Below are positions 2,128-25,597 of a stretch of DNA of 32,000 nt, piece after piece (the first letter of the stretch is position 1; each line of letters begins with the position of its first letter). Both the position numbers and the translations under genes were made by a program. The DNA comes from Promethearchaeota archaeon (lineage in GTDB: Archaea > Asgardarchaeota > Lokiarchaeia > Sigyniarchaeales > SOKP01), in the NCBI GenBank assembly GCA_030606485.1, contig JAUWGH010000004.1, positions 270,001 to 302,000 on the forward strand, read 5' to 3'. Under the pieces are notes generated by a model. It ran no database searches, was not told the origin of the DNA, and worked only from the letters and a program-made list of their open reading frames with translations.

Positions 2128-2979
2128 ATGGCTCAACCTGTCAGTTTAAAAATTCCACCATTTACTACAAATGTCTTATCTAAGAAACGATATCTTATTA
2201 TATATTTTATTTTAATGTGGGTGAGTTTCTTTCCTCCTATTATAGAATTTTGGTTTTATTGGAGAATGTTTTACATCAATAGTCCAATGTTATTCTATTT
2301 CTTATTACCATTAGAATTACTTCTTGTATATCTCACATTAGTTTTTAGCTCAATAATATTTGCTAGATTAGCTTTAATTTTTGTAAATTTGTTTCATAAA
2401 CCTCGTGAAGGAGTTTTTCCAAGAGATCCTAAGAATAAAGACTATAATTATTGGAGCCTTCGATCAGTTATTCAAAAATGGGCAGCGTGGATAAGTCATA
2501 CTTTCCCAATTCCTTGGCATGATGTAATTTTGTTTAAAATAATGGGTGTAAAAACTCATTTCTCTAATTCTACTTACGGTGGATATATCTCTTTAGAATT
2601 TGTTGAATTAGGAAAAAATGTGTCATTAGGGGATGGGTCCTCAATTTTTGGTAGTATCATTATCGGAAATTATCTGATCATTAAAAAAATTAAAATTGGG
2701 GATAACGTAATAATCAGCACTCATTCAGTTGTTATGCCTGGAACAATTATTGGAGATAATTGTATTTTATCCGCATATTCATTAACAGCAGTTGATCAAG
2801 AATTAGAAGAGGGCTGGATTTATATGGGAACACCTGTAAAAAAATATAAAGAAAATAAGTTTTTTGATATGGACTTAAAGATTTTATTTGATGAAAAAAA
2901 AGATGTTTCTGAAAAATGGACAAAATTTGTAGAAAAAAGAGACGCCTTGATTTCAAAAGAAAAAAAAAAAGAACTTTAG
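2128..2979 (+). CDS. Membrane-anchored LbH acyltransferase-like protein, paralog 3
   Basis: Two TM helices, HKPREGVF...YNYW, hexapeptide repeats (IKIGDNVII, VMPGTIIGDNCIL) and WIYMGTP. Clearly homologous to the two upstream ORFs. Confidence 0.75.
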   Translation: MAQPVSLKIPPFTTNVLSKKRYLIIYFILMWVSFFPPIIEFWFYWRMFYINSPMLFYFLLPLELLLVYLTLVFSSIIFARLALIFVNLFHKPREGVFPRDPKNKDYNYWSLRSVIQKWAAWISHTFPIPWHDVILFKIMGVKTHFSNSTYGGYISLEFVELGKNVSLGDGSSIFGSIIIGNYLIIKKIKIGDNVIISTHSVVMPGTIIGDNCILSAYSLTAVDQELEEGWIYMGTPVKKYKENKFFDMDLKILFDEKKDVSEKWTKFVEKRDALISKEKKKEL

Positions 2980-3017
2980 AATTCCATATCAAAACCCAAT
3001 ATTTTATAAAAAATAAA

Positions 3018-3044
3018 TTAGTCTTTTATTTTTTTGAATTGTAA
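3018..3044 (+). promoter_or_regulatory. 27-bp upstream element, copy 1 (before the QueG-like gene)
   Basis: TTAGTCTTTTATTTTTTTGAATTGTAA, 26/27 identical to 3846-3872. Confidence 0.5.
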
Positions 3045-3087
3045 TAAATAATAAAAATTAAAAGATTTTATGGGATGCTAACTCAGA

Positions 3088-3768
3088 ATGGAGCGAAATA
3101 AGAGATTAACAGAAAAAGTTAAAAAATATTGCAGAAAAGTTGGTATAGATATAGTTGGATTTGCAGATACCAAACATTATAATCGATTTCCAGAGGATAA
3201 CCAACCTCAAAACTATTTAAAAGGGTCTCAGACCGTCATAATTCTTGGATTCCATTTACACGACATAATTCTTGATGCATGGAACCAAAATCAAAAAACT
3301 GGCAAAAGTTATCATTTTGCTGATGCAATATTAGAGAATTTTTGCAATTTGGTAAAAAAATTTATTAAAAAACAAGGATACGATTCCAAAATAATCTCAT
3401 ATTCCCCAGGTTTATTTTTAAAAGATTCAGCGGCATTAGCAGGAATAGGTCCCATTGGGAAAAATAATTTGCTAATTACTGAACATTTTGGCTCACAAGT
3501 GCGATTAAGAGCATTAACTACAACAGCTCCATTGGTATGTGGAACGCCTATTTCTGAAAGTAAATATTGCAAAGAATGTAATATATGTATTGAATCATGC
3601 CCTGCTAGCGCATTTCCTGATGGAAAATATAATAAGGATATATGTCGACCTTACGCAATATCACATTTGAAGAATTTATCCGAAAATACCGCGATATGGT
3701 GTAATATTTGTATTGAATCTTGTCCTTTTACCAAGATCGAATATAAAAAAATTTTTGAAAAGAAATAA
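3088..3768 (+). CDS. Epoxyqueuosine reductase (QueG)-like 4Fe-4S protein
   Basis: DIVGFAD, AALAGIGPIGKNNLLITEHFGSQVRLRAL, and the Fe-S motifs CKECNICIESCP and CNICIESCP. Confidence 0.75.
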   Translation: MERNKRLTEKVKKYCRKVGIDIVGFADTKHYNRFPEDNQPQNYLKGSQTVIILGFHLHDIILDAWNQNQKTGKSYHFADAILENFCNLVKKFIKKQGYDSKIISYSPGLFLKDSAALAGIGPIGKNNLLITEHFGSQVRLRALTTTAPLVCGTPISESKYCKECNICIESCPASAFPDGKYNKDICRPYAISHLKNLSENTAIWCNICIESCPFTKIEYKKIFEKK

Positions 3769-3845
3769 ATCAAATTATTTGGGTTTTAATTTTCATTAAT
3801 AATCCTTTTAAAGGAATTTAGAAAAAATGTTAAGATTAAATAGAG

Positions 3846-3872
3846 TTAGTCTTTTATTTTTTGGAATTGTAA
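3846..3872 (+). promoter_or_regulatory. 27-bp upstream element, copy 2 (before hdrC)
   Basis: TTAGTCTTTTATTTTTTGGAATTGTAA, one mismatch to copy 1. Confidence 0.5.
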
Positions 3873-3905
3873 CAAAATTAAATTATAAAAAAATAGTGAC
3901 TCGAT

Positions 3906-4436
3906 TTGGCAGTTATTGATTTTGAATTTCGTAATAGTATTATCCAAAAAGATTTGGGAAATACACTTGCTTACTGTTATCAATGTGGAACATGCTCTGG
4001 AGCTTGTCCAGTGGCTCAAGTAACCAAGGGTAGATATAACCCGAGAAAATTAATTTTAAATTCACTTTTAGGGCTTAAAGAGAATTTATTATTAGGTGCC
4101 GAAAATAACTTTAATATCTGGGGTTGCACTGTTTGTGATACTTGCGATGAAATGTGCCCTCAGAATGTTGAGTTAACCGAGATTTTTATCTTATTAAAAA
4201 ATATGAGTGTTGAAAAAGGAGAAGCTCCTGAGTATTATACCACTCAAGCAAAATTTATTTTAGAACATGGTAAGGCTATTCCATTAGCACCTGCAATAGA
4301 GAGAAGACGCGACCAGATGGGATTACCTAAAGCACCAAAAGTTGATAAAAAAGAGATTAGAGCATTACTGAAGGAAACCGGGCTTGTAAAAATAATTGGT
4401 CCATTAGAAGAAGAAAAGAAGGAGGGAGTAAAATAA
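3906..4436 (+). CDS. hdrC: Heterodisulfide reductase subunit C
   Basis: CYQCGTCSGACP and CTVCDTCDEMCP ferredoxin motifs. Stop overlaps the start of the downstream CCG-domain gene (TAATG). Confidence 0.85.
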   Translation: MAVIDFEFRNSIIQKDLGNTLAYCYQCGTCSGACPVAQVTKGRYNPRKLILNSLLGLKENLLLGAENNFNIWGCTVCDTCDEMCPQNVELTEIFILLKNMSVEKGEAPEYYTTQAKFILEHGKAIPLAPAIERRRDQMGLPKAPKVDKKEIRALLKETGLVKIIGPLEEEKKEGVK

Positions 4437-5369: not shown

Positions 5370-5873
5370 ATGAGTAGTAGAGAGAAGCAATTTCCTTACA
5401 AGTCTATATTGGTCGTTTGTAGCGTTAATACCGCGAGGAGTCCAATGGCAGTAGAGTTTTTAAAGAAAATGCTTGCAGATAATGGCATATATAATGTCGA
5501 TGTCTATTCAGGTGGGATATCATCTCATGCGAGAGACGGAATGTTGATAAGTCTAGATTCTAAATTAGTTATGAGCGAAGTGGGGATAAATTTACCTGAT
5601 GATTATTTATCTATTGATTTAAAGAAACACCGAGATTTAATTAAAAAAGCAGATTTGATTTTAACTTTAACTGAGCAGCATAAAAAAGAAATTAAAAATT
5701 TTGATGAATCAAAAGGTAAGGAGATTCTAACATTAAAAGAAATTGCTGAGGAGACGGGAGATATTGGAGACCCATCGATGAAGGAATTGGGCGGTTTTAG
5801 GCAGGCAAGAGATGAAATTAAAATATGTTTAGAAAAAGGGTTAAAAAAAATTTTAATTTTATTCAATATTTAA
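5370..5873 (+). CDS. Low-molecular-weight protein tyrosine phosphatase / arsenate reductase family
   Basis: P-loop VVCSVNTARSPMA (Cx5R) and the downstream IGDP acid motif. Confidence 0.85.
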   Translation: MSSREKQFPYKSILVVCSVNTARSPMAVEFLKKMLADNGIYNVDVYSGGISSHARDGMLISLDSKLVMSEVGINLPDDYLSIDLKKHRDLIKKADLILTLTEQHKKEIKNFDESKGKEILTLKEIAEETGDIGDPSMKELGGFRQARDEIKICLEKGLKKILILFNI

Positions 5874-6011
5874 TTGTGCATTTCCACCATTGTCGCTAAT
5901 ATCAATAACATCATATATTGTAGATGTCTCATCTAAAAAAACAATTATATATTTTTCTGGATCAAACCTTTCCAATATTTTAATTAATTTTTTTATTTTT
6001 ATATTTACCAC
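5859..6011 (-). CDS. Possible small hypothetical protein (~50 aa), below the ORF-track cutoff
   Basis: Hand translation from GTG: VVNIKIKKLIKILERFDPEKYIIVFLDETSTIYDVIDISDNGGNAQLNIE*. The start is uncertain. Confidence 0.3.
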   Translation of the reverse strand: MVNIKIKKLIKILERFDPEKYIIVFLDETSTIYDVIDISDNGGNAQLNIE

Positions 6012-6089
6012 CTTTAATTTTAATTTTATTCATTCTTATATTATTTATTTCTTATAAATTATTCCCGGAACTTAATCTAATTACAATGT

Positions 6090-6166
6090 TATAAACACAT
6101 CTCTTTTAAAAATTTATTCCGAAAACGTTTACTATGAATATATATTAGAGAAATATAAAGGAAAAA
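6090..6166 (+). repeat. 77-bp dispersed repeat, copy 1
   Basis: 65/77 identical, ungapped, to 11207-11283 (hand alignment). Confidence 0.9.
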
Positions 6167-6272
6167 TCAAAAAAAAATTTCAAATTAAAGGATTAAAAAA
6201 TTATGCATTTATTAAAAAATAAAATCAATTTTTTTTTTAATTTAAAAGAAAATAGTTTGAATATTTGAAAAT

Positions 6273-8951
6273 TTATTTTAAAAATTTTTCTAAATTATTT
6301 TTCCGATGAAAAAAGTATCGGTGATTATATTTTGGTATATCAGTTAATAGAAGTCCAGTTTGTTTTTCATATTGTTTAACAATGTAATCTTGTATATTAT
6401 CGAATGAAACAATAAATGGAATTATTATTAATACAACATTGTTTTCTTCGCACAATTTTTTCTTAAGGAAATCACGTTCTTGTTGATCTATAAAATCTTG
6501 ATATTTTCTATGATAAAATGGATCAAAATGGTAGTGTTGCGGACCATTGTATTCAAATGCTAATTTTAATTGTTTATTAAGTCCATCGAGATGCATTTTT
6601 TTTTCCGTTTTATAATTTATCAACCATTTGGGTTTATTGGTGGGAAATTTAGCATTAAAAATTCGCTCAAAATAGCCACGACAATATCGTTCACTTTTAC
6701 CTTTTGAGCAATTGGGACACCAAGTTTTTCTTTTAATACTAGTAGGTTTAGCTTCCCATATATATCCACATTTCCCGCATTGCCATTTGAGACGTGTATG
6801 ATTATTGAAGTATTTTTTCGATAAACATTTACCAGGATACCCAGTTTCTTCAAGACCTCTTTTCTCTGCTAATTTTTGCATTTTTTCAATAGTTAATTTT
6901 AAGTTACCAGCGCATTTAAGACACCAACTTCCATAATTTTTTATGCTATCAGGTGTAGCTTCCCATATATGTCCACATTTCCCGCATTGCCATTTGAGAT
7001 TTGTTTTATTATTAATGTATTTTTTCGATAAACATTTGCCGGGATACCCAGTTTTTTCAAGTCCTCTTTTCTTTGCTAACTTTTGCATTTCTTCAATAGT
7101 TAATTTTTTTTTACAAGCGCATTTAGAACACCAACTTCCGTTATTTTTTATGCTATCAGGTCTAGCTTCCCAAATATGTCCACATTTCCCGCATTGCCAT
7201 TTGAGAGGTGTCTTATTATCGATGTATTTTTTCGATAAACATTTTCCGGGATTGCCAGTTTTTTCAAGTCCTCTTTTCTTTGCTAACTTTTGCATTTCTT
7301 CAATAGTTAATTTTTTTTTACCAGCGCATTTAGAACACCAGCTTCCTTTATTTTTAATGTCATTAGGCCTAGCTTCCCAAATATGTCCACATTTCCCGCA
7401 TTGCCATTTGAGATTTGTTCCACTATTTATGTATTTTTTCGATAAACATTTTCCGGATACTCCAGTTTTTTCTAGACCTCTTTTTTTTGCTAATTCTTGC
7501 ATATCTTTGATTGTATCTTTTTTCTTCATTAGTTCATCACATTTAGGATTTTTTTCAAAATATTCAAGTTGTGTCAGTTGTTGGAAATCAGTCAACTGAC
7601 TGAGCCGACTACATCTATATGGTATAGTCTTTAGATGGCGTTGCGAGCACCATTGCCATAGCAACTGCCTTAATTGACGGTCAATATTTCTAAAAATTTT
7701 TTTATCTTGACAAAATTGAAAGTAATTCCACCAACCACGAACGATTGCATTTAATCGTTTAGAAATTTCAGATGTTTCGGCGTGTTTGTTAAAATATAAA
7801 AATATCTTGATTCGATCGAGAAAATTTTTGATTGAATTTTTACTAGGAGTGCAATTGACGACGCAGTGATTTTTATATCTAATTTGTCGGATATTAAACC
7901 CTAAGAAATCGAAGCCCTTATCTGAGCGGATAATTTTTGTCTTACCTTTATGAAGATTTAAGCCTCTACTTTTTAAAAAATTTTTAATCTTAGGAAGTAC
8001 ATAGGATTCTAGAATTTCTCGTGAGGGTGTGATAACTATAAAGTCGTCTGCGTATCTAATTATTCGATATCCTTTTTTGTTTTCCGTTTGTTGGGAAGAA
8101 GAGATAAAGATTCCTTTAGATTCCTCCTTTTGGAATAATCTTTCTAAGCCATCAAGTGCAATATTTAAGAGTAAAGGACTAATAACAGCCCCTTGTGGAA
8201 GCCCGACATTTGTTTTTGAATTTCGACCTCGACTAAAAATCCCAGATTTTAGCCATTTTTCAATTAAAGGTTTAAATACCGAGATTTTATTAAGAACAAA
8301 CGCGTGATTAGTTTTTTCAAAGCACTTAGTAATATCAGCCTTTAATATCCAACAGAAATTTTCTGATTTGCTACTTGATTTGCCACTGGTTTGGATTTTT
8401 TCTTGAATCTCTTGAATGCTATCTTGGATTCGTTGGATTGCGTCATGTGCTCTACGATTTTTTCGATATCCGAACACATTTGGTTCAAATTTTGCCTCCC
8501 ATTCTGGTTCCAGAGCCATTTTTACGATTTTTTGCATAATTCTGTCTTTAACTGTAAAGATTACTATCGGACGTTTTCCACCATCTGGTCTCTGAATGTA
8601 AATGCGTCTGACAGATTGTGGTTGAAAATTTGTAAAATTTAACTCGTACAGTAATTGTTCAATTTTTTCAGGAGTGTTATACAATTTCCCGTCAATAACT
8701 GCTGGTTTTTTTCTTTTATAACTATACGAGAACCGAAAAGCCGAAAAGAACTCTCTACTCGCAAATAATTTTACAAAATGTGATCTTACAAGTAAATGTT
8801 GAAGTGACCTAACCTTTTTCCAGCGCTTTTCAGAACTCGCTCGGAATATACGTTTCTGGAGATGGTTAACTTGAGATTTAACCTTATGCCAGTTAACACT
8901 ATGCCAATCAAACTCAAGTCCGTTGGTCTGTTCAATGCCCAGCAGAGCCAT
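6273..8951 (-). CDS. Group II intron-type reverse transcriptase/maturase fused to four Zn-ribbon repeats and a Vsr/very-short-patch-like endonuclease
   Basis: RVT_N (WHSVNW...LQKRIFRA), RT motifs (VRRIYI...KRP, KADI, GLPQGAVISPLL, RYADDF, GFDFLGF) and domain X (LNAIVRGWWNYF). These are followed by 4x WQCGKCG.IWEA.P..I...WC..C and then HLDG...LAFEYNGPQHY...RDFLKKKLCEENNVVLIIIPF. Confidence 0.88.
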   Translation of the reverse strand: MALLGIEQTNGLEFDWHSVNWHKVKSQVNHLQKRIFRASSEKRWKKVRSLQHLLVRSHFVKLFASREFFSAFRFSYSYKRKKPAVIDGKLYNTPEKIEQLLYELNFTNFQPQSVRRIYIQRPDGGKRPIVIFTVKDRIMQKIVKMALEPEWEAKFEPNVFGYRKNRRAHDAIQRIQDSIQEIQEKIQTSGKSSSKSENFCWILKADITKCFEKTNHAFVLNKISVFKPLIEKWLKSGIFSRGRNSKTNVGLPQGAVISPLLLNIALDGLERLFQKEESKGIFISSSQQTENKKGYRIIRYADDFIVITPSREILESYVLPKIKNFLKSRGLNLHKGKTKIIRSDKGFDFLGFNIRQIRYKNHCVVNCTPSKNSIKNFLDRIKIFLYFNKHAETSEISKRLNAIVRGWWNYFQFCQDKKIFRNIDRQLRQLLWQWCSQRHLKTIPYRCSRLSQLTDFQQLTQLEYFEKNPKCDELMKKKDTIKDMQELAKKRGLEKTGVSGKCLSKKYINSGTNLKWQCGKCGHIWEARPNDIKNKGSWCSKCAGKKKLTIEEMQKLAKKRGLEKTGNPGKCLSKKYIDNKTPLKWQCGKCGHIWEARPDSIKNNGSWCSKCACKKKLTIEEMQKLAKKRGLEKTGYPGKCLSKKYINNKTNLKWQCGKCGHIWEATPDSIKNYGSWCLKCAGNLKLTIEKMQKLAEKRGLEETGYPGKCLSKKYFNNHTRLKWQCGKCGYIWEAKPTSIKRKTWCPNCSKGKSERYCRGYFERIFNAKFPTNKPKWLINYKTEKKMHLDGLNKQLKLAFEYNGPQHYHFDPFYHRKYQDFIDQQERDFLKKKLCEENNVVLIIIPFIVSFDNIQDYIVKQYEKQTGLLLTDIPKYNHRYFFHRKNNLEKFLK
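6708..7514 (-). repeat. Tandem array of four 207-bp (69-aa) Zn-ribbon coding repeats within the RT ORF
   Basis: The marker CCACATTTCCCGCATTGCCATTTGAGA occurs at 6766, 6973, 7180 and 7387, an exact 207-bp period. Confidence 0.95.
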
Positions 8952-9184
8952 TGTCTAACATCACAAACTGTTTATTTTCCAGAAAACTTTTTTTTCCGAG
9001 AGATTTTTATTTTTTATTTTATCCAAATTAAATTGAATTTAAAGATCAATTTTCTTTCATTATAATTATTTCAACTTGAAATTTGGAGGTTTAAATTATC
9101 AAGCAAAAAAAGCGTATTTAATTATTTGTAAGCTTTCGTTGACACTTGCTTCAAATTTGAAGATTTATTTTAAAGATGATAAAA

Positions 9185-9604
9185 TCACGATTTTATCTCA
9201 TTTGAGGTTTTAAAAAGTGATTTAATCAGAAATTCCCTCTCTGCCTCATTCTGCTCTATTAGAAAATCATTATATTTACCGAGATCCAAATTATTCATGC
9301 TCGGATATTTTTGGAAAAACTGAATTACAATGCTCATAAAAGGATATTTTTTTAAAAATTCAATAACTCGTTTTATACCTTTTTCTGTAATGAGATAATA
9401 TATCTCTCTTGAAGTTTTAAAAATTAAAATATAACCTTTCTTATTAAGGATTTTGCACCGGCTATAAAAATTTTGCCTAATTCCGCCAATTCTTTTCCGT
9501 ATTTCACGATAAGAAACTAATCTTTTCCTTTCCTTTATAAGAAATTCCATCAGACATAAAAGAATTTCAGTAGAATACGGCACTAAAAAGTTCAATCTTT
9601 TCAC
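9185..9604 (-). CDS. Winged-helix (MarR/ArsR-like) DNA-binding protein, upstream of and co-oriented with the RT fusion
   Basis: SYREIRKRIG...KILNKKGYI...YYLITEKGIKRV wing motif. Confidence 0.65.
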   Translation of the reverse strand: MKRLNFLVPYSTEILLCLMEFLIKERKRLVSYREIRKRIGGIRQNFYSRCKILNKKGYILIFKTSREIYYLITEKGIKRVIEFLKKYPFMSIVIQFFQKYPSMNNLDLGKYNDFLIEQNEAEREFLIKSLFKTSNEIKS

Positions 9605-10338
9605 AAATTTTTTTATTTAACTTTCTAAAACAAATTATAAAAATTCAGATAAAATAACTTCTTCATTTCATAGATAAATTTTGTACCTATTTTTTTTCAT
9701 AAGGATCAAATTATTCTTCCAACAGGTTTATAATGTTAAATTTCAATAGTTTATACAATTCTACTAATTATAAGAATCAAAAAACTTCGACTAAAATTAA
9801 AATTAAAGCTTTATAAATTAAATTGAATTAAGAAAATTTTCGAGTAATATCGATATCCAGTATTTTTTATTCTAAAATTTATAATAAAAAATTCCTCTGG
9901 AATAAGTTGTTTGAATTCCGAGGAATTTAGAATTAAAAAAATTATTGTTAGATTTAAATATTTTTTATAGGGATTTAAGTAAATTTCAAAAAGTTAAAAA
10001 TATTGCTCAAAGGTTAGATTTCTCTTATCTTTTCAAAGAATTCAGTAAATAGAAAGAAATATTTAAATATTTGATATTTAATGTTAATTATAGATAAAAA
10101 AATTAAAATTAATGTAATTCATGTCTGAATTATTAAACAATAAAAGAGTTATAACTATTTATGCAGGTATTCAAAGTCAAAGATTAATTCACGCTTAAAT
10201 CGGAAAATGGTAAAGTAATTACGAAATCGTATTGAAATGGAAATAATAGAAGAGAAATTAATGAAAAAAAAGATTATAAAATGTTATATATGTCATTAAA
10301 AGTATAAATTAATAACAAAAGAAAAAGAGATTGGAAAT

Positions 10339-11103
10339 TTGTTTAAAACTATTGTTATAACTTCACCTAACCTTGACAAAGTAGAAAAAACGAATGTCTT
10401 ATACATAAATCAGGGTTTCTCTAAAATTAGTATTTATTACTTAAAATTTGAAGCTTATATTGATGAAGCAAAGGATTTCGAATGTATAGTTAGAATTATA
10501 GATGAACTCGAACATCAAAAGGTGATTGAAAGAAAAAGATTTTTCAATAAAGCTAGTTTTATATTTAAATGTAAAGATGCCACTAGCCTCGATATAAAAG
10601 ATGCAGATGTTAAAGATGTATGTTTAATTTTCATTGAATATGAATTTCCTAATTTTAAAAAATCTGATCCACCGATTTATCTTGATATTGAAATCATTGA
10701 ATTTGATTCCAAAATAATTGATTCTATGAACACAAAACCCCAAATAAAGGAAGATATTTATGATTTAGTTGATAAATATTTATCTGATGATTTTAAAGGA
10801 GCAATAAGTGAGATTGGGACTATAGGAGAATATATAGCTAGGGAATTTGCTGAAAAAATTCATAATAAAAAGGTTGGTAATTTTCGAACTGCTTTAAATA
10901 TATTAACAAATGAAAAGAAATTAGCGCGGAAAAAAATAAATTATTTCTACTTAGGTTCTTTATTATGGCCAATATATTATATTAGAAATCAAAAATCTCA
11001 CCCATATCATAAGATTGAATTTGATAAATCTACAGCCAAAATTGCTATGGAAAATTTATCTAGTATTTTAAATTATTTAGCCAAAACGAAATTCAAATTT
11101 TAA
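10339..11103 (+). CDS. Protein with C-terminal HEPN domain (putative RNase effector)
   Basis: C-terminal helical region GAISEIGTIGEYI...YYIRNQKSHP contains the Rx4H motif. N-terminal region is unassigned. Confidence 0.6.
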   Translation: MFKTIVITSPNLDKVEKTNVLYINQGFSKISIYYLKFEAYIDEAKDFECIVRIIDELEHQKVIERKRFFNKASFIFKCKDATSLDIKDADVKDVCLIFIEYEFPNFKKSDPPIYLDIEIIEFDSKIIDSMNTKPQIKEDIYDLVDKYLSDDFKGAISEIGTIGEYIAREFAEKIHNKKVGNFRTALNILTNEKKLARKKINYFYLGSLLWPIYYIRNQKSHPYHKIEFDKSTAKIAMENLSSILNYLAKTKFKF

Positions 11104-11206
11104 ATTTTGGATTGTATTCATATATTTCCTCATTTGGAGTGTTCGCTATAAAACTCTCTCAAACAAATAAATTTTACAAAATTAAATATAATTCTAAAGG
11201 CAAAAT

Positions 11207-11283
11207 TATAAACTCATCTCTTTTAAAAGTTTATACCGAAAGCGTTTATTAGTTATATATCTTAGGTATATATAAAGGAAAAA
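11207..11283 (+). repeat. 77-bp dispersed repeat, copy 2
   Basis: Matches copy 1 (65/77) and copy 3 (57/77) without gaps. Confidence 0.9.
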
Positions 11284-11322
11284 GATTGGTATCTTTTAAT
11301 AAAGTTATATAATTGAGGGATT

Positions 11323-12960
11323 GTGACTAAAAAATCTCAAGAACTAATTGAGACCCTATTTAAGGGTTTAATGGAATCTCTAATACAAATAGCTAATGGA
11401 GAATATGTTTTTAAAAATAATCAAACAATTTATTCCACGAGTCTTTCTTACAACGGTCCAAACTCAGATCTCCCATTAGAAGAAGAAATATTTCAATATT
11501 TTGAGAAGGAAATTGTATCAAAAATTCCTCATGCATTACTTTTAATTAAAGGAAATCTCTCTATTGAAGTCTCAATTAACAAAGAAATAAATAATAAATT
11601 AAAAAAGACCCAAAGTGCAAAACGAGAGTTAGACATTTATAAATCTTTTAAAACCATATTCTTTCCTACAATGAATGAATATCTTGTTAAGTTGGGAAAT
11701 TCTGAGCCAGAATGGATATATTTAGCAGAAAAAGATTGGAAAGTAGATACTAAAGATCAAAATAAAAAAAAATTTGAAAATGGAAATTATATAAAATATA
11801 TTAGAGGAAAGTCTTGGATTAGTATGGAGATTGAAGGAACAGCGATTTCTTTTTTAAAAGATGATATTGATTTCTTTTTTAATAATTTTAAATTTAAAAA
11901 TCCTATTTCTGTTGGGACAATTATCTTACCCCAGACAGACATTTCATTAGATGAGTTTAGGTCAAAATCAAAAACTAATAAAAAAAGTTATTATACGACT
12001 GATTTATATTCGTCCGAGCAAAAGAAAAGGTTTATTCAAAAATTACTTGAAAATTTTATTGAGTGGTATCCAAAATTTATTAATGACAATTTTCCTAGAA
12101 TTCGTAAATCTTTTAAATTATATCAGAATTTACCAGTAAAAATTATATTAAGTTTTGATAAACCATTTAAAGATGCTTATGAGCATCAAGATCTCTGGTT
12201 TTTTTGGGGTGTTGAGAAATTACCGAATGATTCCAAAAATATTGTAGAAATGGTTGAAGGGTATGATGCTAACTATGATGAGAATAAACATTTCATCGCA
12301 AGGTCAACTTCAACAAATTATTTGATTATTGATAATCAATATAATGCATTTCCATTTACATACAAATTTATAAGAGAAGAGTTAGAGGATATTTTAGAAG
12401 GATTTGAAAACGATTCAATATTTGATGAGATAAAACCTTTTCAATCGTCTCTAGAAGGTTGGATTCAAATAATATTAGATGCTGAGAAAAGAGGGGGAGA
12501 AGATTATAATATCGAGCTAAAATCAATACCAACTGAATCTAAGGAAGGAGATGGTTCAGGAAATGACATTTATGGGCATATAAATGGATTTGAAAACGAA
12601 GAGGGTGGCTATATATTTATTGGTGTCGATGAGAACAAAATTGGCAGAGAAAAAATTGTTGGATTAGAGGGATATCTCAAGAGTAAAAAAAAGACATTAG
12701 ATCAATTAGTACGAGAAATTAGACAAAAATGCGTTAATTATCTTAAAAACGACAATTATCGTATCCAAACTAGAACAGATGGTGGAATTTCTTTAATAAG
12801 AATTACTATTCGTTCAAACAAAGGTGGACTTAATTGGTTTTACACCAAAAAAGGATTACGCATAACATATGTTCGAAGAAATAGAGAAAAAATACCAATG
12901 CCAGAGCATGAAATTGAAGAGAGATTGAGTAAGAAATATAATAAGGCACTAATTAAATAA
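11323..12960 (+). CDS. Protein with C-terminal AlbA_2/Schlafen-like domain
   Basis: NIELKS...INGFENEEGGYIFIGVDE...IVGL pattern in the last ~170 aa. The N-terminal ~370 aa are unassigned. Confidence 0.7.
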   Translation: MTKKSQELIETLFKGLMESLIQIANGEYVFKNNQTIYSTSLSYNGPNSDLPLEEEIFQYFEKEIVSKIPHALLLIKGNLSIEVSINKEINNKLKKTQSAKRELDIYKSFKTIFFPTMNEYLVKLGNSEPEWIYLAEKDWKVDTKDQNKKKFENGNYIKYIRGKSWISMEIEGTAISFLKDDIDFFFNNFKFKNPISVGTIILPQTDISLDEFRSKSKTNKKSYYTTDLYSSEQKKRFIQKLLENFIEWYPKFINDNFPRIRKSFKLYQNLPVKIILSFDKPFKDAYEHQDLWFFWGVEKLPNDSKNIVEMVEGYDANYDENKHFIARSTSTNYLIIDNQYNAFPFTYKFIREELEDILEGFENDSIFDEIKPFQSSLEGWIQIILDAEKRGGEDYNIELKSIPTESKEGDGSGNDIYGHINGFENEEGGYIFIGVDENKIGREKIVGLEGYLKSKKKTLDQLVREIRQKCVNYLKNDNYRIQTRTDGGISLIRITIRSNKGGLNWFYTKKGLRITYVRRNREKIPMPEHEIEERLSKKYNKALIK

Positions 12961-13320
12961 AGTTTTTTTTTAATTTATTTTATGTATCGTATCAATTTTA
13001 GAAATAAGAGACTCTGCATAATTGGATTCCTACGTAACATCAGTTGGCAACCGCTTTAATTAATTCAACTCTTTTTTTAGGTATTGCCTTAAATAATCGA
13101 TGCTCCCTTAAATTCGGAAAAAAAATTTTCCCTCCGTTTAAAATATCGAAATTGGTAAAAAATATTTTATTTGATTAATCTAAAAAGAGTTGTCCATCTT
13201 TTTCTAGCCTTTTATTAACATATCTTAGTGTATCAGAATTTTAATTTCTGGATTTTTTTATTTATGTATTTATTATTTTATTCAATTTAATTGAATTATA
13301 TAATCGTTATTGTATTAATT

Positions 13321-14412
13321 TTAATCTCGATAATATTGATTGCATCTATAACATCTTAGATAATTTTGATGAAGTTGCATTTCTTGTCTGCAATCCACAC
13401 AAAAATTCTTAAGTTTTGCCATAAATCCTACAAAACAAAAATAACACATTTTATATTTTGATGAAATTGGTATTCCACAATCAATACATTGTTTTGAGAA
13501 TTCTCGTTCTTCCCCTAAAATATTAATATTTTTAATAAGATATGTAAGTCCATTATCAAACGAATTTTCTAGAAATTGAATGATTTTACTATGGTTCATT
13601 TTTTTGTGAACCTTCCCTTTTTCAATAATATTGAGAGTGTAGAGAATAAATCTATTCCGAAGGTTCATATATTTATAAGGGTTGTTGACATACTCTTTTC
13701 GTCTTTTTGGAAAAACAGGTTTGAATTTTCTCTTTTGCCTGAAATGAAATACTTCATTGAGAAAATCCAAGAACTCTTTATCTATTTTATTTTGTTCGCA
13801 TAATTCTAAGATTTTTTCATAAATTTTAGTTAAGGTAGTCTTCTTATATTCTTTTTGAAATAGCACCACTAAATAATATGAAAATTTGAATATCGCTTTT
13901 GAAAATATCATTTCTGCACTTGGTATATCGTTTCCATTAATCTCTATTCTCAAACTCTTATTCAAATAATAGAAGGCTCTTCTCAACAGATCATCGTAGT
14001 CGTCGTCTTTATAAGTAACATCTAGTAATTTATTACGGAAATCTTTGCCAAAGATAATTTTAGAATTGTATTTAAGATCAATAATAGCCCATTTATAGTT
14101 TGAAAAGGAATATTTCTTAAACTCTTTCTCATTAGAAAGAGCCGAGAATAAATTGTAAATAATTGAAATTTTTTTGTCTTCGAATATTTTCTCTTCAAAA
14201 CGCGCATTACTGTATTCCAAGGATTTAAAATTTAGTGCTTCTTGATCAAATGTTTTCACGAACACAAGAACATCGATATCATTTGGTTTAAAGTTATTAG
14301 TATCTTCATGAAAATATGAGCCAATTCCAAATATACTTACTAAATTTTCCTTCAGTTTATCTTTCACATAAAGGAAGACATCATATAACAACGAATCCTC
14401 TGTTTTTATCAT
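13321..14412 (-). CDS. Pol-beta-type nucleotidyltransferase with helical (HEPN-like) domain and C-terminal double Zn ribbon
   Basis: GIGSYF...NDIDVLVF (GS...DxD), a helical bundle LLRRAFYYL...KAIFKFSYYL, then CIDC..CYFC and CVDC..CYRC. Confidence 0.7.
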   Translation of the reverse strand: MIKTEDSLLYDVFLYVKDKLKENLVSIFGIGSYFHEDTNNFKPNDIDVLVFVKTFDQEALNFKSLEYSNARFEEKIFEDKKISIIYNLFSALSNEKEFKKYSFSNYKWAIIDLKYNSKIIFGKDFRNKLLDVTYKDDDYDDLLRRAFYYLNKSLRIEINGNDIPSAEMIFSKAIFKFSYYLVVLFQKEYKKTTLTKIYEKILELCEQNKIDKEFLDFLNEVFHFRQKRKFKPVFPKRRKEYVNNPYKYMNLRNRFILYTLNIIEKGKVHKKMNHSKIIQFLENSFDNGLTYLIKNINILGEEREFSKQCIDCGIPISSKYKMCYFCFVGFMAKLKNFCVDCRQEMQLHQNYLRCYRCNQYYRD

Positions 14413-14566
14413 TGAATTTAGATTTTTTTGAGAAATTCTGATCAGCCTTTTATTTTCAATTCAGAAATATACGGACGCATAATATGAAAATTGCGTGGAG
14501 TTATTTTATTAAAGTAAAAAAAGCCAACTATTTAAAGCTTTGTATATAAATAGTTCATTAAATTTT

Positions 14567-14600
14567 AATAATAATAATTATAATTATAATTATTATTATT
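14567..14600. repeat. Perfect 34-bp AT-only palindrome
   Basis: AATAATAATAATTATAATTATAATTATTATTATT equals its own reverse complement (checked by hand). Confidence 0.85.
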
Positions 14601-14821
14601 TTATTATTAGTATAAATAAATGAAAGCTTAAACGTTATATCTTCTTGATTATAAAGTTCTCATGCAATTGAATTAAAATTCAAAATATGCTTTAGCCTAT
14701 ACATTTTTTTATCATCAGAATTTATATAATCAAAAAACTCACTATTCTTACTATCCATCTTCATCTTATAGAAATAAAATATTTTTTCTTGAAATCATAG
14801 AACTTTTTAAAATTGTAATTA

Positions 14822-14898
14822 TACAAACTCATCATATTTAAAAGTTAATTTTCAAAGCGAATGATAAGTATAGATTTTTAGTAAATATAAAGGAAAAA
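14822..14898 (+). repeat. 77-bp dispersed repeat, copy 3 (more diverged)
   Basis: 57/77 ungapped identity to copy 2. Conserves AAACTCATC, TTTAAAAGTT, AAAGCG and ATATAAAGGAAAAA. Confidence 0.8.
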
Positions 14899-14952
14899 TG
14901 ATATTGGTACTTGTATAGCATTAAATTGTAATTTTAAAATTTAGATAAGGCG

Positions 14953-16551
14953 ATAAAAATAAGGTCAAGAAAAAATTTTACAGGAGATCTTCTAGATTAC
15001 GACTGGTTAAAAAAAAAAAATACCAGGGTACGAGATTCAGATGGTCTTTTAATAGTTAAATGGTTTTTAAAAATTAAAAAACCCGATTTTAAAACTTTAA
15101 ACTTATGGATATTACAAGAGGCTGAAGAACTTAGAAAAAAGAGAGAAAAATCAAAAGATAAAATAAATAAAAATTTTGAAGAAAAAATTAAGATAAAAGA
15201 GTGGGAAAAGTTTTGTGAAAATTCTCAAATAAAAGAGGAAATTTGTAAACGTTTAAGATATGACTATAGCCCATCAGTAGAATTTGAATCAAATAAATTA
15301 AATCAATCTATAAAAATATCAAGATATGAATTAATAAAAAAAATACGAGACGAATTATCTTCGAAATATAATTATAATGATTATGACGATCTAGGATTAT
15401 ATGGGGGTTTATATTATCGAACACTTGGATTATCAAGGGCGTTAGGAGGTAATTATATTGCAGATGATGTAAAATCCCATCTTAATGTTAGAGTCATGTG
15501 GCTTTTAAAGCAATTTATTCTAAAGAATGCAATAGATACAAATACTCAAAAATATGCCTTAATTCGAGGTTTAATGCAAGATATTATACTCGCTCAATCA
15601 TGTTTAATTAGATTAAGGGCAGGATTAAATGTATTTCATGTAATATCTGTTCTTGGATGGGAAATTTTTAATTTCGATGGATTATGTCTTTACTTTGAAA
15701 CATTGACAAATACTATAATTGTAAGTATAAGATCATTTATAGATAAACTATGGAGGATGACACACAATTTTTTTTTAAATAAAGACAAAAAAATTACAGC
15801 TACAATTCAAAATGAAATACCCAACTGCAATAAATTTTCAATTACGAGTCTTGAGCGAGTTTATTCTATAATATCTACATTACATAACGTTCATAAAATT
15901 TCCCCTTATCAAAGAGATAGACATAATTTTGGATTAATGTTTGATTTTACTAATGCAGATACATTATTTCTAATTAATGAATTAAGAAACAATTATATTC
16001 ATGGTGAACCTAGTCCAAATATATCTGGCGTTATTAGACGAGATTATATTACTAGCGAGGAAACTCCTAAGAGAAGCAGTAGATATGATATATATATTTC
16101 CACAACTCCATTAATTAAAATTAAGAATTTGGATAATAGCGGATATAAAGATTTTAGAAAATTTTTAGAAAAACAAGGGTTGGATTTATCTAAGCTTGAT
16201 TATTGGGATGTTTTGGAAAAGCGTATATTATGGCGTGCTCCCCCTGAGATTCAAGATACAATCAAATTTGATCATTTTCCAGATCTTTATTCATCTTCCA
16301 TTCCTTTGGTTGTTAAAGAGATTACACATATAGAAAGAGAAGAAAAAGGAAATATGGAAGTCATACAATATTTTGAGCATGATAAAAAAATCCTAGAATG
16401 TATGATTACACAATTAAAAAGTGCAGAAATTTCTGGTTATTATAAAATTTCTCTTTATAATTTAAGTGATTGTATGTGGTCTTTGTTTGATACCTTAAAG
16501 ACATTGTTGAAAGTCTTTCTAATGAAAAAATTATATAATAAAGAATTTTGA
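14953..16551 (+). CDS. HEPN-domain protein (Cthe_2314-like); the real ORF probably extends ~180 codons upstream of the first ATG (15496)
   Basis: The frame is stop-free from 14938. It contains FETL...SIRSFIDKL and ELRNNYIH (Rx4H). The ATA at 14953 is a candidate non-canonical start. Confidence 0.6.
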   Translation: MKIRSRKNFTGDLLDYDWLKKKNTRVRDSDGLLIVKWFLKIKKPDFKTLNLWILQEAEELRKKREKSKDKINKNFEEKIKIKEWEKFCENSQIKEEICKRLRYDYSPSVEFESNKLNQSIKISRYELIKKIRDELSSKYNYNDYDDLGLYGGLYYRTLGLSRALGGNYIADDVKSHLNVRVMWLLKQFILKNAIDTNTQKYALIRGLMQDIILAQSCLIRLRAGLNVFHVISVLGWEIFNFDGLCLYFETLTNTIIVSIRSFIDKLWRMTHNFFLNKDKKITATIQNEIPNCNKFSITSLERVYSIISTLHNVHKISPYQRDRHNFGLMFDFTNADTLFLINELRNNYIHGEPSPNISGVIRRDYITSEETPKRSSRYDIYISTTPLIKIKNLDNSGYKDFRKFLEKQGLDLSKLDYWDVLEKRILWRAPPEIQDTIKFDHFPDLYSSSIPLVVKEITHIEREEKGNMEVIQYFEHDKKILECMITQLKSAEISGYYKISLYNLSDCMWSLFDTLKTLLKVFLMKKLYNKEF

Positions 16552-16695
16552 ATTTTCTCTATAAAAACCTCAATTTCTATTTTAAAAAATCATTTTTCAA
16601 ATTATAGAAAATTTCTTCAGGAAATTTTTTCAAATTATCATAAGAATTATTTAGTTTCTAGTTGTGATAGATACAAAATATTATTTGAAAAACAG

Positions 16696-16743
16696 GAAAT
16701 TCAAGGACTTTTTATAAATAAATTAAGTAAGGTGATAATGTAA
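16696..16743 (+). promoter_or_regulatory. Conserved upstream/TATA block of ATPase copy 1
   Basis: TTCAAGGACTT(TT)TATAAATAA.TTAAGTAA.G.GATAATGTAA is shared with 26615-26661. Confidence 0.55.
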
Positions 16744-16798
16744 TAAGAGGATATAATAAGGTTAAATAACAGTTAAATAAACGCAAAAAATAGGGCAT

Positions 16799-18415
16799 AT
16801 GACTAAATATAAAAAATACACTGAAATAAAAAAGAGCGAAGAATATGATATAATCGATTTACCAAGCCCTTCTAGGAGAGATTCACGAAGAGGAACGATT
16901 AAAATTGGTAAATCTTTAGTAGTAAAAAAATCATTATTATTAAAAAGGCCTCGGTATAAAAAGAAACATAAGTTTTATCTAAGTGTAGATGATCTTCACA
17001 GACATGTTTTCATTAGCGGTTTAACGGGAGTAGGAAAGACTAACTTCGTTAAGAATTTTTTGTTGGAATTTAAAAAAAAATTTGATGTAACGTTTCTTAT
17101 TGTTCAAATTAAGAATGATTTCGACTTTATTAGGGATTATTTTAAAGATCTTGAAATATTTTCTCCTGGCGAGAATTTTTCCATTGATATTTTTAATCCC
17201 GGTAAAATTGATCCCTTAATACATGCTGAAAGAATATTTGAGATGTTAAAAAATAGCAGATTAATTGATTCTTCAAGTGAGTTTTCCCCCCAAATGGAGA
17301 AAGTTCTTGTGGATGTTATAACAGAAGTCTGTAGAAGTAAAGGTCTAAAAAATTGGCAAAAATTTTACGAGATTTGTAATGAATATTTTAAGAACCATAG
17401 AAATGAGATTCCGAAATTGGACCAAACTTTTATTAGTGTAAAAAATAGAATTCGTAGGATGTCAGAAGGGCCATTAAAAAAAGCATTAAGCAATGAAAAT
17501 TTAATACCGATTGGCAAAATCTTAAATAGTAATAGTATTTTGAATTTAAGCTCAATTGTTCGCCTTGGGGGGGATAAAGAAGATGTTTATTTCTTTTTGA
17601 TGTTAGTTTTAAAGAATATTTGGGACTATAACATTTCTGCAGGCATTTCTAATAGGTTAAAGCATCTTACAATTGTCGATGATGCAACGTATTTTATGCC
17701 AAGAGAAAGTGCATCGAATGATAAGATTAGCACATATCTTGAAGATATTGCATTGCTACAGAGAGGTACGGGTGAAAGTTTGATCACTATTGCTACAAGA
17801 CCTGATATTAGCGAAAATATTTTAGCTAATTCAGGTGTAGTTATCGGTTTTGAAACACATTTTAAGAAACATAATTTTGCTGAACTATTAAATTTACCTG
17901 AAGAGAAGTATATGTATCTTTCCTTATTAGAGAAGGGACAATGTATTATTAGAACACCCTCTATTAAAATACCCTTTCTTTTAAATATTCCTTGGATTAA
18001 AGATTCTAACAAATTGAAAAAAAAAACGCCTGTGACTCCAAAATTGAGAAGAATCAATAAAAAAATTAAAATGAAACACCTTAATTTTCGACTCGATTTT
18101 ACTCGAAATTGCTTTCGTTCAGGGGACTATTCCAGTTGTTATTTTATTTGTTTAGAAATAATTGACTATATTGTTGATCAACTTGTATATCGATTAAATT
18201 ATGAATTTGGAGGTGTAGAAAAACTTGTTTTTGACATTGAACAAAACAATTTTTCGGATCGCATCAAAATTTATCCTGAGCTAAAAATAATTTCAAACAA
18301 TATTAATAATATTGAACAAAAAGAATTAATTTCTCGCAGTGACATTTTAGAATTATTTGAACAAATTTGCAGTATCTTCAGTAAATATAATTATGTTATA
18401 TTTAACACTCTTTAA
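16799..18415 (+). CDS. HerA/FtsK-superfamily (DUF87-like) ATPase, copy 1
   Basis: Walker A HVFISGLTGVGKT and Walker B LTIVDD (deviant DDAT). Ends in a ~110-aa helical C-terminal domain. Confidence 0.75.
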   Translation: MTKYKKYTEIKKSEEYDIIDLPSPSRRDSRRGTIKIGKSLVVKKSLLLKRPRYKKKHKFYLSVDDLHRHVFISGLTGVGKTNFVKNFLLEFKKKFDVTFLIVQIKNDFDFIRDYFKDLEIFSPGENFSIDIFNPGKIDPLIHAERIFEMLKNSRLIDSSSEFSPQMEKVLVDVITEVCRSKGLKNWQKFYEICNEYFKNHRNEIPKLDQTFISVKNRIRRMSEGPLKKALSNENLIPIGKILNSNSILNLSSIVRLGGDKEDVYFFLMLVLKNIWDYNISAGISNRLKHLTIVDDATYFMPRESASNDKISTYLEDIALLQRGTGESLITIATRPDISENILANSGVVIGFETHFKKHNFAELLNLPEEKYMYLSLLEKGQCIIRTPSIKIPFLLNIPWIKDSNKLKKKTPVTPKLRRINKKIKMKHLNFRLDFTRNCFRSGDYSSCYFICLEIIDYIVDQLVYRLNYEFGGVEKLVFDIEQNNFSDRIKIYPELKIISNNINNIEQKELISRSDILELFEQICSIFSKYNYVIFNTL

Positions 18416-18572
18416 AATCTAATTATTTTTATAAAGATTAGAATCATTCGGCGTCCTTCAAACTTGAGTTATTTTTTGAATTAAAAGATATAAAAATGTA
18501 AAAAATGTTAAAATACTATTTAATAAAAATTTCAAAATACAAATAAACAACAAGATTTAGGGTTATAGAAAT

Positions 18573-18632
18573 ATGAGAAAACAAGTAATTGGGGGATATT
18601 GGAAGATTTACTGGTTCAGTTCTATTATATAA
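18573..18632 (+). pseudogene. tpiA: 5' stub of a triosephosphate isomerase gene
   Basis: MRKQVIGGYWK versus MRKQVIGGNWK of tpiA at 25598; 29/35 nt identical. Homology is then lost and a stop follows at codon 20. Confidence 0.75.
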
Positions 18633-18724
18633 GGTTACTAGGGGTTCGAAAATTTATAAGCTTGTGTTGTTTCCCTAGTATTTATTAATTTTGAAAAGTA
18701 TAGTAAAAAAACTCTCAGACAATC

Positions 18725-19813
18725 TTAATTTATTTTTTTATTTGTTGATCTTAAACGTCGAATAGTTATATTATTTATTGTTAATGATAATGTTTTTTGC
18801 CTTTCTATCCGTTCTTTAATTCTGGAATCATTTGATTCAATTTCTTTTTTAATAAAATGGTTTTGAAATTCAAGAGTTTGAATTTTTATTGCCTTTAAAA
18901 ATTCCCATCCTACAAAATTCATTTGACTCTGTGGTATCCACAAATCTACTTTTTTGGAAGCGTATACTTTTAAATACCCATTATGGTAAAAAAAGATTTT
19001 CCCAATTCCAATCCCTAATGAATTTAGATGGAATATATTCCTAATATAAGGTTTATCAAACAAATCTGGTCTATAATTAAATAACGAATTTAAACCAAAA
19101 ATGATTGGTTGATAAATCTCAGTACAATTCCTATCGAAGTCTATATCAATTAATGGGTAGGAAATTGCTTCACTTCCCTTTTCAAATAAAAACCCTGATT
19201 GTTGATCTGGAAATAACAATGTTTTCGAAGGATAAGGTATTCCCATACCTCTAGATAACAAAAAATAACTTGAAATATTAATAAATGCAAAATTATTCAC
19301 ACTTAAGGCAAAGTAAGTCGGTAAAAATTGAAAAGCGGGCATTTCAGTTCCCATTATATGTAATCGATTCGACCGTTTTAAACTTCTAAAAATCAACAAT
19401 AATCGATCTTTTATGTTAATACCTTGATTTATATAAAAATTTGGATTTATACCAAAAAAGTTCTTATACATATAGATACTTGCAAGCCAAAGACCGATTC
19501 TAATTTTATCAAACCAACTCAATAATACATAAAAATCAGTCGAGCTTAATTTATTTTCTGACAGTAAATTTTCTATTATATTCTTTGCTATTGATTCTAA
19601 ACGTGAATATCTATTATTACATTCTTCACATGAAGGAAATACGAACTTATCAAAACTGAATGATTTATTTATTAACCTCCCATCTTCATAAAATGGTCCA
19701 AAAATTGCCTCACGATTCGGATCTCCAGTTAATTAAATTAACCATCTTGGAATAACGTGTTCATTCGTTTTTTTTATTGGTGTTTGGCCACAAAAGATAC
19801 AAAATCTTTCCAT
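18725..19813 (-). pseudogene. HNH-type nuclease gene (362 codons) broken by one in-frame TAA at codon 27
   Basis: Hand translation MERFCIFCGQTPIKKTNEHVIPRWLI*LTGDPNREAIFG...FPSCEECNNRYSRLESIAK continues in frame into track ORF 18725..19522. TAA is at 19735-19733. Confidence 0.75.
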
Positions 19814-19819
19814 TTAATA

Positions 19820-21808: not shown

Positions 21809-21822
21809 AAATCATTTACCTA

Positions 21823-22269
21823 TTAATATCTTGAGAGAAGTGTATATTCCGGATATTTAGAATAAACTATATTAATTAATTCCTTAAGAGATAACCCCTC
21901 AAGGTTAGAGATTATATTTTTTATTTTATCTTGAGTTTTATTATTTAATGAATCCTTAATTTTAATAAATCCTTTATCAGTAATTGCGTAAATAATTGTT
22001 TTTTCATCTCTATCATAAAAACTATGGATAAATCCATTTTCTTCTAAGAATTTTAAATCTTCCTCTATTTCTTTTGAATATGGACCATAATGTTTAGGAT
22101 GGAAATTAAAATAAACATCAATACTCACTTCTTTTTCTAATAGAAACAGATATTTCATCAAGCGAGTTTTGCCTTTAATCTGCTTAAAGTTAAATATTAA
22201 TTGTAGGATAATATCTAACTGTTTGTTTCTAATCTTTTCCATATTTAAATCTTCTCCCTTAATTTTCAT
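21823..22269 (-). CDS. YwgA/DUF4065-like winged-helix protein
   Basis: GKTRLMKYLFLL...HYGPYSKEIEEDLKFLEENGFI...YAITDKG...IVYSKYPE. Confidence 0.65.
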   Translation of the reverse strand: MKIKGEDLNMEKIRNKQLDIILQLIFNFKQIKGKTRLMKYLFLLEKEVSIDVYFNFHPKHYGPYSKEIEEDLKFLEENGFIHSFYDRDEKTIIYAITDKGFIKIKDSLNNKTQDKIKNIISNLEGLSLKELINIVYSKYPEYTLLSRY

Positions 22270-22970: not shown

Positions 22971-23256
22971 ATTAATGATTTTATCTTTTTTTCTTTTCTA
23001 TAGAATATTATAGTTAAATTTGATAATAAATATTGTTTTAAATGATTTCCAAGAAATTGAGTTCTAGATTTTTGAAATAACTAATTTGTTGATTTTCTAT
23101 CAAATTAATTTGTTATTAAAAAATTAGTTATTTATTTTAAAATCAGAAAAATGCTTATTTTTTACATCCAACTAATTCTTTTGATGAAAAAACTAGGAGA
23201 TAAGACATTTTAAGTTTAATTGTTTTCATTATATCATAAATTGGAGGTTCATTATA

Positions 23257-25460: not shown

Positions 25461-25597
25461 ATAAAATTATTATCAAATCTTTTTAGTTTCAATTAGATTT
25501 GATTTATTACACAGATATTTAATAATAAAAAGAAAAAAAATATTTTAGTATTAAATACTAAAGATAATTAACAGCAAAATTTAGAGCGTAATTAAAA

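Follow-up and report, generated by a model that had tools for sequence, protein, structure and literature searches.

In halovirus HF2 and other Haloferacalesviruses, intergenic repeats (class I of 58 bp and class II of 29 bp) carry promoters, as demonstrated by reporter assays (Russ, Pfeiffer, Dyall-Smith 2021, PMC8707807), and by analogy these are the closest documented parallel to a repeat described here from the chromosome of a Promethearchaeota archaeon. The repeat occurs as three copies of 91 nucleotides (nt) in a strain-variable island within a stretch of 32,000 nt, termed the window, which corresponds to positions 270001-302000 of contig C2 in the 3.75-Mb genome G000 (29% G+C, 13 contigs) and to which all coordinates refer unless a contig is named. 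The three repeats are, on balance, probably diverged copies of one promoter-proximal module that was duplicated locally in a fast-changing, defence-type island. Like the HF2 repeats, they are short, AT-rich archaeal repeats that are intergenic and precede different genes within a single stretch of DNA. The HF2 repeats, however, belong to viruses, occur in larger numbers, keep their positions throughout a virus genus and have been tested by experiment, whereas the repeats considered here are three chromosomal copies that belong to one species-level lineage and are known from sequence alone.

A second comparison is with the archaeal promoter itself, in which the TATA box lies about 26-28 nt upstream of the transcription start (PMC8553660). 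The repeat resembles promoters that combine a TATA box with a B recognition element (BRE) in its AT-rich TATA-like blocks at a plausible distance, its G/C-containing conserved blocks further upstream and its fixed spacing, and departs from this model in that its BRE-like CGAAAG is not typical of the upstream regions of this genome and in that a promoter is here predicted from sequence. The repeat also shares with integron attC sites and Xer/dif (pdif) modules the property of being a repeated non-coding sequence between accessory genes of a strain-variable region. Finally, the window itself contains promoter leftovers of segmental duplication (a pair of HerA-like ATPase genes and a stub of tpiA), which are comparable to the repeat in their local origin, similar divergence and location just upstream of gene starts; unlike in these leftovers, the coding parts behind the copies of the repeat are unrelated and the copies are still ungapped.

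The repeat and the gene starts behind it

An earlier note on this DNA had described three ungapped, same-strand repeats of 77 bp. Their places, their strand and the absence of gaps were confirmed (MAFFT and a repeat finder), but the length was not, as the similarity runs 14 nt 5' of the earlier limit to give a unit of 91 nt, present on the + strand at 6076-6166 (copy 1), 11193-11283 (copy 2) and 14808-14898 (copy 3). Pairwise identity over the 91 nt is 74/91, 63/91 and 62/91 (68-81%), with 56/91 columns invariant, and over the shorter 77 nt copy 1 matches copy 2 at 65/77 positions (84%) and copy 3 does so at 57/77 (74%), which reproduces the earlier values exactly, while copies 1 and 3 agree at 54/77. 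The unit carries the conserved blocks AAAC.CATC, TTTAAAA, AAA.CG and ATATAAAGG; the first three had been listed previously together with ATATAAAGGAAAAA, which was likewise found and which, with 14 nt at the 3' end of the unit, is the longest run invariant across the three copies (with 56/91 columns invariant, the rough chance of such a run is ~0.03). The palindrome CTTTTAAAAG and the inverted arms TTATATAT-N7-ATATATAA, to which the same note had drawn attention, are present in copy 2 as described but are disrupted in copies 1 and 3. No open reading frame (ORF) is conserved across the copies, the stop positions varying among them when inspected by eye.

The sequences flanking the unit are otherwise unrelated, with ~10 extra nt common to copies 1 and 3 on the 5' side and further sequence shared by copies 2 and 3 on the 3' side. 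All three copies also show a weak, gapped similarity over the next ~40 nt on the 3' side, here termed the leader, in which there are small indels, and these indels between copies start directly downstream of the 91 nt. In a set of 20,000 random 91-mers from the genome, no sequence agreed with any copy at more than 48/91 positions. By both BLAST and nhmmer, the genome contains only these three copies, which match the nhmmer profile with E values of 3e-20, 1e-17 and 1e-15, the next best match having E = 2.

Each copy ends 38-40 nt before a + strand start position, namely an ATG at 6204 behind copy 1 (38 nt), a GTG at 11323 behind copy 2 (40 nt) and the opening of a reading frame at 14938 behind copy 3 (40 nt), so that all three lie at a consistent distance directly upstream of gene starts, as is looked for in an archaeal promoter module. 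The gene behind copy 2, the sole clearly intact gene directly behind a copy, encodes a 545-residue AlbA_2 (Schlafen-type) protein (11323-12960, + strand; Pfam PF04326, E 1e-9). Full-length homologues of this protein with 40-48% identity are found in Promethearchaeota and Odinarchaeota and support the GTG start at 11323, and the start position in the sister strain G003 is ATG. Behind copy 1, the ATG opens a stub of 21 codons (6204-6269, + strand; read from the sequence) that occupies the same place as the gene starts of copies 2 and 3 and ends 4 nt before the end of a reverse transcriptase (RT) gene. Copy 1 points at the 3' end of this RT gene, 107 nt distant, as the earlier note had it, with the stub in between.

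The frame behind copy 3 is that of a HEPN-like gene (14938-16551, + strand), an open frame of 537 codons with an RNNYIH motif of the RNxxxH type and without a Pfam family match. There is no ATG, GTG or TTG in this frame before 15496, and the proposal that copies 2 and 3 both lie just upstream of + strand genes therefore holds for copy 2 and needs qualification for copy 3; the gene may be start-less or decaying. Its homologues P0005 and P0006 (45-46% identity, 98% coverage) begin MEKIDFTKD, aligned to 14962, and the RNxxxH motif is invariant in the homologues. The ATG of the G000 gene was seemingly lost by a small deletion just 3' of the conserved AAATAAGG, and the version held in the protein collection (P0004, 351 residues, start 15496) is without 186 conserved residues. 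The AlbA_2 and HEPN-like proteins show no similarity to each other, and no trace of the repeat was found upstream of the HEPN-like homologues with 45-46% identity from other metagenomes. Hence the unit was placed before these genes within this lineage and was not inherited with the gene.

A predicted promoter and leader

If the copies descend from one duplicated module, it would begin with ~90 nt that contain upstream regulatory elements and the core promoter and continue into the less conserved leader of ~40 nt. Copy 2 would head the intact AlbA_2 gene, copy 3 a HEPN-like gene whose start codon has been lost, and copy 1 only the 21-codon stub, the gene that it once served having been lost or displaced beside the RT gene. 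TBP and TFB would bind one TATA-like block, the likeliest being ATATAAAG, which is identical in all copies and lies at -53 to -46 relative to GTG 11323, and with this block as the TATA box the transcript would start ~20-25 nt before the start codon, leaving a 5' untranslated region of ~20-25 nt. With the alternative boxes, TTTAAAAG and TTTATTAG/TTTACTAT, transcription would begin within the unit or at GGAAAAA. Further upstream, the blocks that contain G/C, AAAC.CATC and AAA.CG, would be sites for a shared regulator, resulting in common control of the genes. The promoter activity, the position of the transcription start and the existence of the regulator are all predictions.

Evidence bearing on constraint comes in part from the strain comparisons, which are of contigs only and in which three further versions of the island are readable (G003, L194 and X2). 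In L194, a Logan contig of 12.8 kb, copy 2 is unchanged and, together with its leader, is identical to G000 over 130 nt, with the adjacent DNA differing by 6.7%; the divergence between G000 and L194 falls from 5-7% to ~0-1% at the 5' edge of copy 2 (11192). Copy 3 has four changes in L194, one of them inside the invariant block, and the HEPN-like gene is cut at 15113, with other genes following. As the gene behind copy 3 is destroyed in L194, relaxed constraint on copy 3 is expected there, and the contrast between a changed copy before a truncated gene and an unchanged copy and leader before an intact one is counted in favor of promoter function. The sister strain G003, whose assembly is fragmented and whose form of the island also appears in run X3, retains copy 1, in identical form, and the RT gene. 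In G003, 304 unrelated nt between the genes for a winged helix-turn-helix (wHTH) protein and AlbA_2 replace 9656-11258, and therefore the strain has neither the gene for a 254-residue protein that in G000 lies upstream of copy 2 nor the first 66 nt of that copy. Homology resumes inside copy 2 at about position 67/91 (~11259), and what remains of it is the last ~25 nt, from ATCTTA.G through AAAGGAAAAAG, before the same AlbA_2 gene. That the part which G003 keeps in front of AlbA_2 is the one with the TATA-like block ATATAAAG fits a core promoter at this place. In addition, the three copies are free of gaps at 19-32% substitution, whereas of 53 further pairs of intergenic repeats in the genome that are comparable in length and identity only 12 are gap-free, and an ungapped unit of 91 nt despite such divergence fits constraint on spacing. 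The block-wise conservation, with its invariant run of 14 nt, is likewise counted in favor. Together the evidence points modestly to constraint on the copies.

The same observations have to be weighed against the main rival, an unlikely one, according to which old local duplications, such as one of an ancestral gene and the DNA before it, survive in the copies as decaying relics that have no function today and behind which later genes were swapped in by illegitimate recombination. The island is indeed rich in such remnants, as exemplified by the HerA-like duplicate (16690-18451 vs 26629-28443) and the tpiA stub (18569-18612), and in the genome as a whole intergenic segments of at least 60 nt recur in 68 families, many of which form local clusters (e.g., C3:41-52 kb and C4:211-221 kb). 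Moreover, copy 1 heads nothing, copy 3 heads a gene without a start, and copy 3 changes between strains as fast as its flanks. Against relics speak, however, the absence of gaps in all three copies at up to 32% divergence when 77% of the comparable pairs in the genome are gapped, the invariant block of 14 nt, the equal distance to a start position in each case, and the identity of copy 2 with its leader in strains whose DNA immediately before it diverges by 5-7%.

Several findings weigh against the promoter and leader module itself. A clearly intact gene follows just one of the three copies, and at the homologous place behind copy 3 there is neither a Shine-Dalgarno motif nor a start codon. 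The divergence of copy 3 between G000 and L194 (4/91, 4.4%) is comparable to that of its flanks (2.3-9.7%), and the X2 strain has one change in the AAA.CG block of copy 1; hence purifying selection falls short of demonstration. The promoter signal of the genome, obtained from the upstream regions of 1,675 genes and of 15 tRNAs (intron-less tRNA search), is diffuse and AT-rich. In favor of the module, TATAAA and ATATAA are enriched 1.7-1.8x at -40 to -24 of the genes; about a fifth of the genes have Shine-Dalgarno motifs, concentrated at -15 to -10, and a CGAAAG-type BRE is not enriched upstream of the genes of this genome. Each of three different TATA-like boxes in the repeat could be fitted, so that the assignment is unspecific, and because the signal is diffuse it permits no choice between the candidate boxes. 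No RNA run with this DNA is listed, and the two metatranscriptomes of the source study contain next to none of it. A shared promoter or operator for an effector regulon had been one of two possibilities raised earlier. Of these terms, promoter or operator remains the best fit, given the fixed distance, the absence of indels and the TATA-like blocks, and effector regulon overstates the case, since only copy 2 lies before a clearly intact gene.

Strain breakpoints and the other readings

The second possibility raised earlier was a recombination site of an integron- or dif-module-like cassette array. According to this proposal, which is improbable, the copies are attC-like or Xer/dif-module-like sites that bound exchangeable cassettes, with the recombinase encoded elsewhere. 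What speaks for it is that the gene content between and around the copies varies among close strains, as had been suspected, and that some breaks touch the repeats, namely the break inside copy 2 of G003 at ~11259, the point (14811) where a contig of X2 departs from the window sequence at the 5' end of copy 3, and the step in G000/L194 divergence at the 5' edge of copy 2 (11192). Most breakpoints, however, lie off the repeats, at 5888/24581, 9655, 9810-9834, 14680 and 15113, and among the joints listed none links two repeat copies; two joints in runs X7 and X2 (15187->6161 and 13534->6227), which are of low depth (3-4) and have 26-29 bases of unexplained sequence at the junction, are uninterpretable. 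Homologous exchange between copies would be inefficient as well, with at most 14 identical bases in a row. The events at the repeat edges fit the movement of a promoter plus its gene as a unit at least as well as they fit site-specific recombination.

The distribution of the repeat also argues against recombination sites. Outside G000, copies were found only in near-identical strains (G003 and metagenome contigs such as L194). The G003 ortholog of copy 1 was the only match in 40 relatives and 154 genomes of the order searched by BLAST, as it was when 185,579 species genomes and viral contigs were scanned for exact matches to a 24-base pattern, and 135 genomes of the family searched with a pattern allowing up to 2 mismatches gave no repeat beyond it. 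An exact-protein look-up of the neighboring phosphatase returned G003 only. Short partial matches in G009, G018 and L104 and at C13:21444 and C2:302708 were rejected as chance matches, mostly in coding DNA. Three copies in one island, with none in the 154 genomes of the order apart from the sister strain, are unlike a family of sites with a dedicated recombinase, which would be expected to be far more numerous and widespread.

Nor is a recombinase at hand. The window contains no integrase or transposase gene, no match to Phage_integrase was obtained among its scanned ORFs of at least 60 residues, and the only two tyrosine recombinase genes of the genome (PF00589) are both on contig C1. In 111 nt around each copy, examined on both strands, there is no attC-type hairpin or shared RNA fold (z-scores -2.0 to +1.1, structures differing), and thus none of the hairpin-forming imperfect palindromes of attC. 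A dif-type core of 28 bp, with two 11-bp inverted arms and a 6-bp spacer, is also absent, no inverted repeat being conserved across the three copies. The layout differs as well. In place of single promoterless ORFs in one orientation with many sites, each at the 3' end of a cassette, there are three sites located 5' of genes, separated by blocks of two to three genes on both strands. With three copies only, no recombinase in the window, no conserved hairpin and breakpoints mostly elsewhere, the integron- or dif-module-like recombination site is not upheld.

An intermediate view, itself quite doubtful, is that the 91-nt unit is a portable expression module for newly acquired defence genes that doubles as a preferred junction for exchange. 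New genes would be captured behind existing copies, or copies would be laid before new genes, and recognition might involve a DNA-binding protein of the island, such as the wHTH protein or the Zn-ribbon array of the RT. The breaks in copy 2 of G003 and at the edge of copy 3 in X2, the step at the edge of copy 2 and a further insertion in X2 fit this view without showing it. The latter consists of ~1.6 kb (~1,633 nt) inserted at 6194-6203, right at the ATG behind copy 1, and is flanked by a 10-nt duplication, TAAAAAATTA; it could be an insertion sequence element or a full gene headed by copy 1.

The RT gene that copy 1 faces (6273-8951, - strand) is of the group II intron type (Pfam RVT_N/RVT_1/GIIM, PADLOC), and the earlier note had drawn an analogy to group II introns that target attC sites. 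The first 440 residues of the protein correspond to the maturase part of such introns and are 45-47% identical to RTs of other Promethearchaeota, and its C-terminal half is an array of four fused 69-residue Zn-ribbon (DUF4379/CapR-like) repeats. The G003 ortholog (823 residues) is shorter by exactly one 207-bp unit of this array. No group II intron ribozyme domains were found at the RT locus or its G003 ortholog in the Rfam search, whereas six related RT loci of Promethearchaeota, used as a positive control, score 40-64 bits for RF00029/RF02012 in the same search. The sequence comparison indicates that this RT has lost its ribozyme, and with an RT locus devoid of ribozyme the analogy to an intron targeting attC falls. 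The nuclease label that had been attached to the RT found no sequence support in its C-terminus either, residues 745-892 being without a significant match in Pfam, NCBIfam and PDB sequences.

Several defence RTs act with adjacent non-coding RNAs. It is therefore conceivable, if highly improbable here, that the repeat encodes or starts a small RNA, either an RNA antisense to the RT gene that extends from copy 1, which is directed at the 3' end of that gene from 107 nt away, or a template or guide RNA for the RT. Copies 2 and 3, however, are not beside the RT and stand before protein genes, no secondary structure is shared on either strand, and Rfam gives no match in the window at the gathering score, nor even at E up to 5 for 5800-15600.

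The remaining alternative, that three insertions of a miniature inverted-repeat transposable element (MITE-like mobile element) gave rise to the copies, is largely refuted and barely credible. It would account for a short non-coding repeat in a variable region, but terminal inverted repeats and target-site duplications are absent, and the ends are not sharp, given the extra 5' similarity of copies 1 and 3 and the extra 3' similarity of copies 2 and 3. In addition, the copies number only three, are confined to 9 kb and share one orientation, and no transposase gene is present in the island.

The island and the meaning of the repeat

The sister genome G001 has an empty site in which window position 5872 is joined directly to 24606, and contigs in runs X1 (where this is the minor form, depth 4 vs 66) and X3 connect 5888 with 24581, 3 nt being common to the two sides. 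The island therefore comprises 5889-24580 (18.7 kb), between a low-molecular-weight phosphatase gene and an alpha/beta-hydrolase gene, and contains all three copies of the repeat in its first 9 kb. Its flanks are housekeeping DNA, with HdrB/C-like genes and the phosphatase on the left and the hydrolase, tpiA and glmS on the right. The sequencing run that bears this DNA is a cold-seep metagenome. Elsewhere in the window, three tandem paralogues of ~275 residues each with hexapeptide repeats (449-2979) are absent in G001, where window position 360 joins 3037, and in G002 there is a 3.9-kb insert between the hydrolase gene and tpiA.

The gene labels proposed earlier were upheld to different degrees. 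Those of the RT (RVT_N/RVT_1/GIIM) and AlbA_2 (E 1e-9) are sound, and that of the small winged-helix protein beside the RT (139 residues; 9185-9604, - strand) is weak, its match to Pfam HTH_34 (E 7e-4) being under the curated cut-off; the protein is a candidate DNA-binding regulator, and the island has a further DNA-binding candidate in an HTH-like protein of 234 residues. The 254-residue protein upstream of copy 2 (10339-11103, + strand; missing in G003) has the RNQKSH motif and, as with the 537-residue protein behind copy 3, its HEPN label is backed by an RNxxxH motif but by no Pfam match. The 363-residue protein (13321-14412, - strand), whose gene is divergent from that behind copy 3, has C-terminal Zn ribbons and, by eye, the GS...DxD motif on which its label as nucleotidyltransferase (NTase)-like was based, but no significant family match. 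Further genes of the island encode a HerA-like ATPase (+ strand) and, in an operon, a Lamassu-LmuB-like SMC ATPase (- strand).

The strains differ in some of this content. L194 has an insert of 1,620 nt (its positions 2658-4277) at window 9810-9834. The insert contains a gene for a 405-residue protein that belongs to no known family, and the 25 nt of 9810-9834 are directly duplicated at its borders. After the truncated HEPN-like gene, the same contig (9623-12824) continues with a second copy of the 5' end of the wHTH gene (85% identity to window 9490-9662) and then three genes of no known family.

As to the growth of the island, its HerA-like ATPase gene is duplicated together with ~110 nt of upstream DNA at ~80% identity, and the tpiA start stub (counterpart at 25594-25637) follows the island copy. 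Segmental duplication of the tpiA-HerA region thus seems to have contributed to the present size of the island. In a family on contig C13 (45005-45140, 45753-45854 and 49918-50049), ~100 nt of upstream DNA and the first ~12 codons (MS.TSKKFS.PV) are shared by ORFs that have nothing else in common by BLASTP. Local duplication of promoter-proximal DNA seems to be habitual in this genome, which makes the present repeat less exceptional.

The case described here is therefore probably a small further example of the duplicated promoter/leader modules that are already known, and a fairly ordinary one. Its reach is limited to three copies, one lineage and a reading of the DNA itself. The negative outcome also matters, as there is here no archaeal integron or dif-module array and the neighboring RT is not a mobile intron. 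To our knowledge, almost nothing has been established experimentally about the transcription signals of Asgard archaea. If the copies are active promoters, they would provide a concrete and testable Asgard promoter/operator sequence, and would show that unrelated accessory genes of the defence type in a fast-changing island can come under one control.

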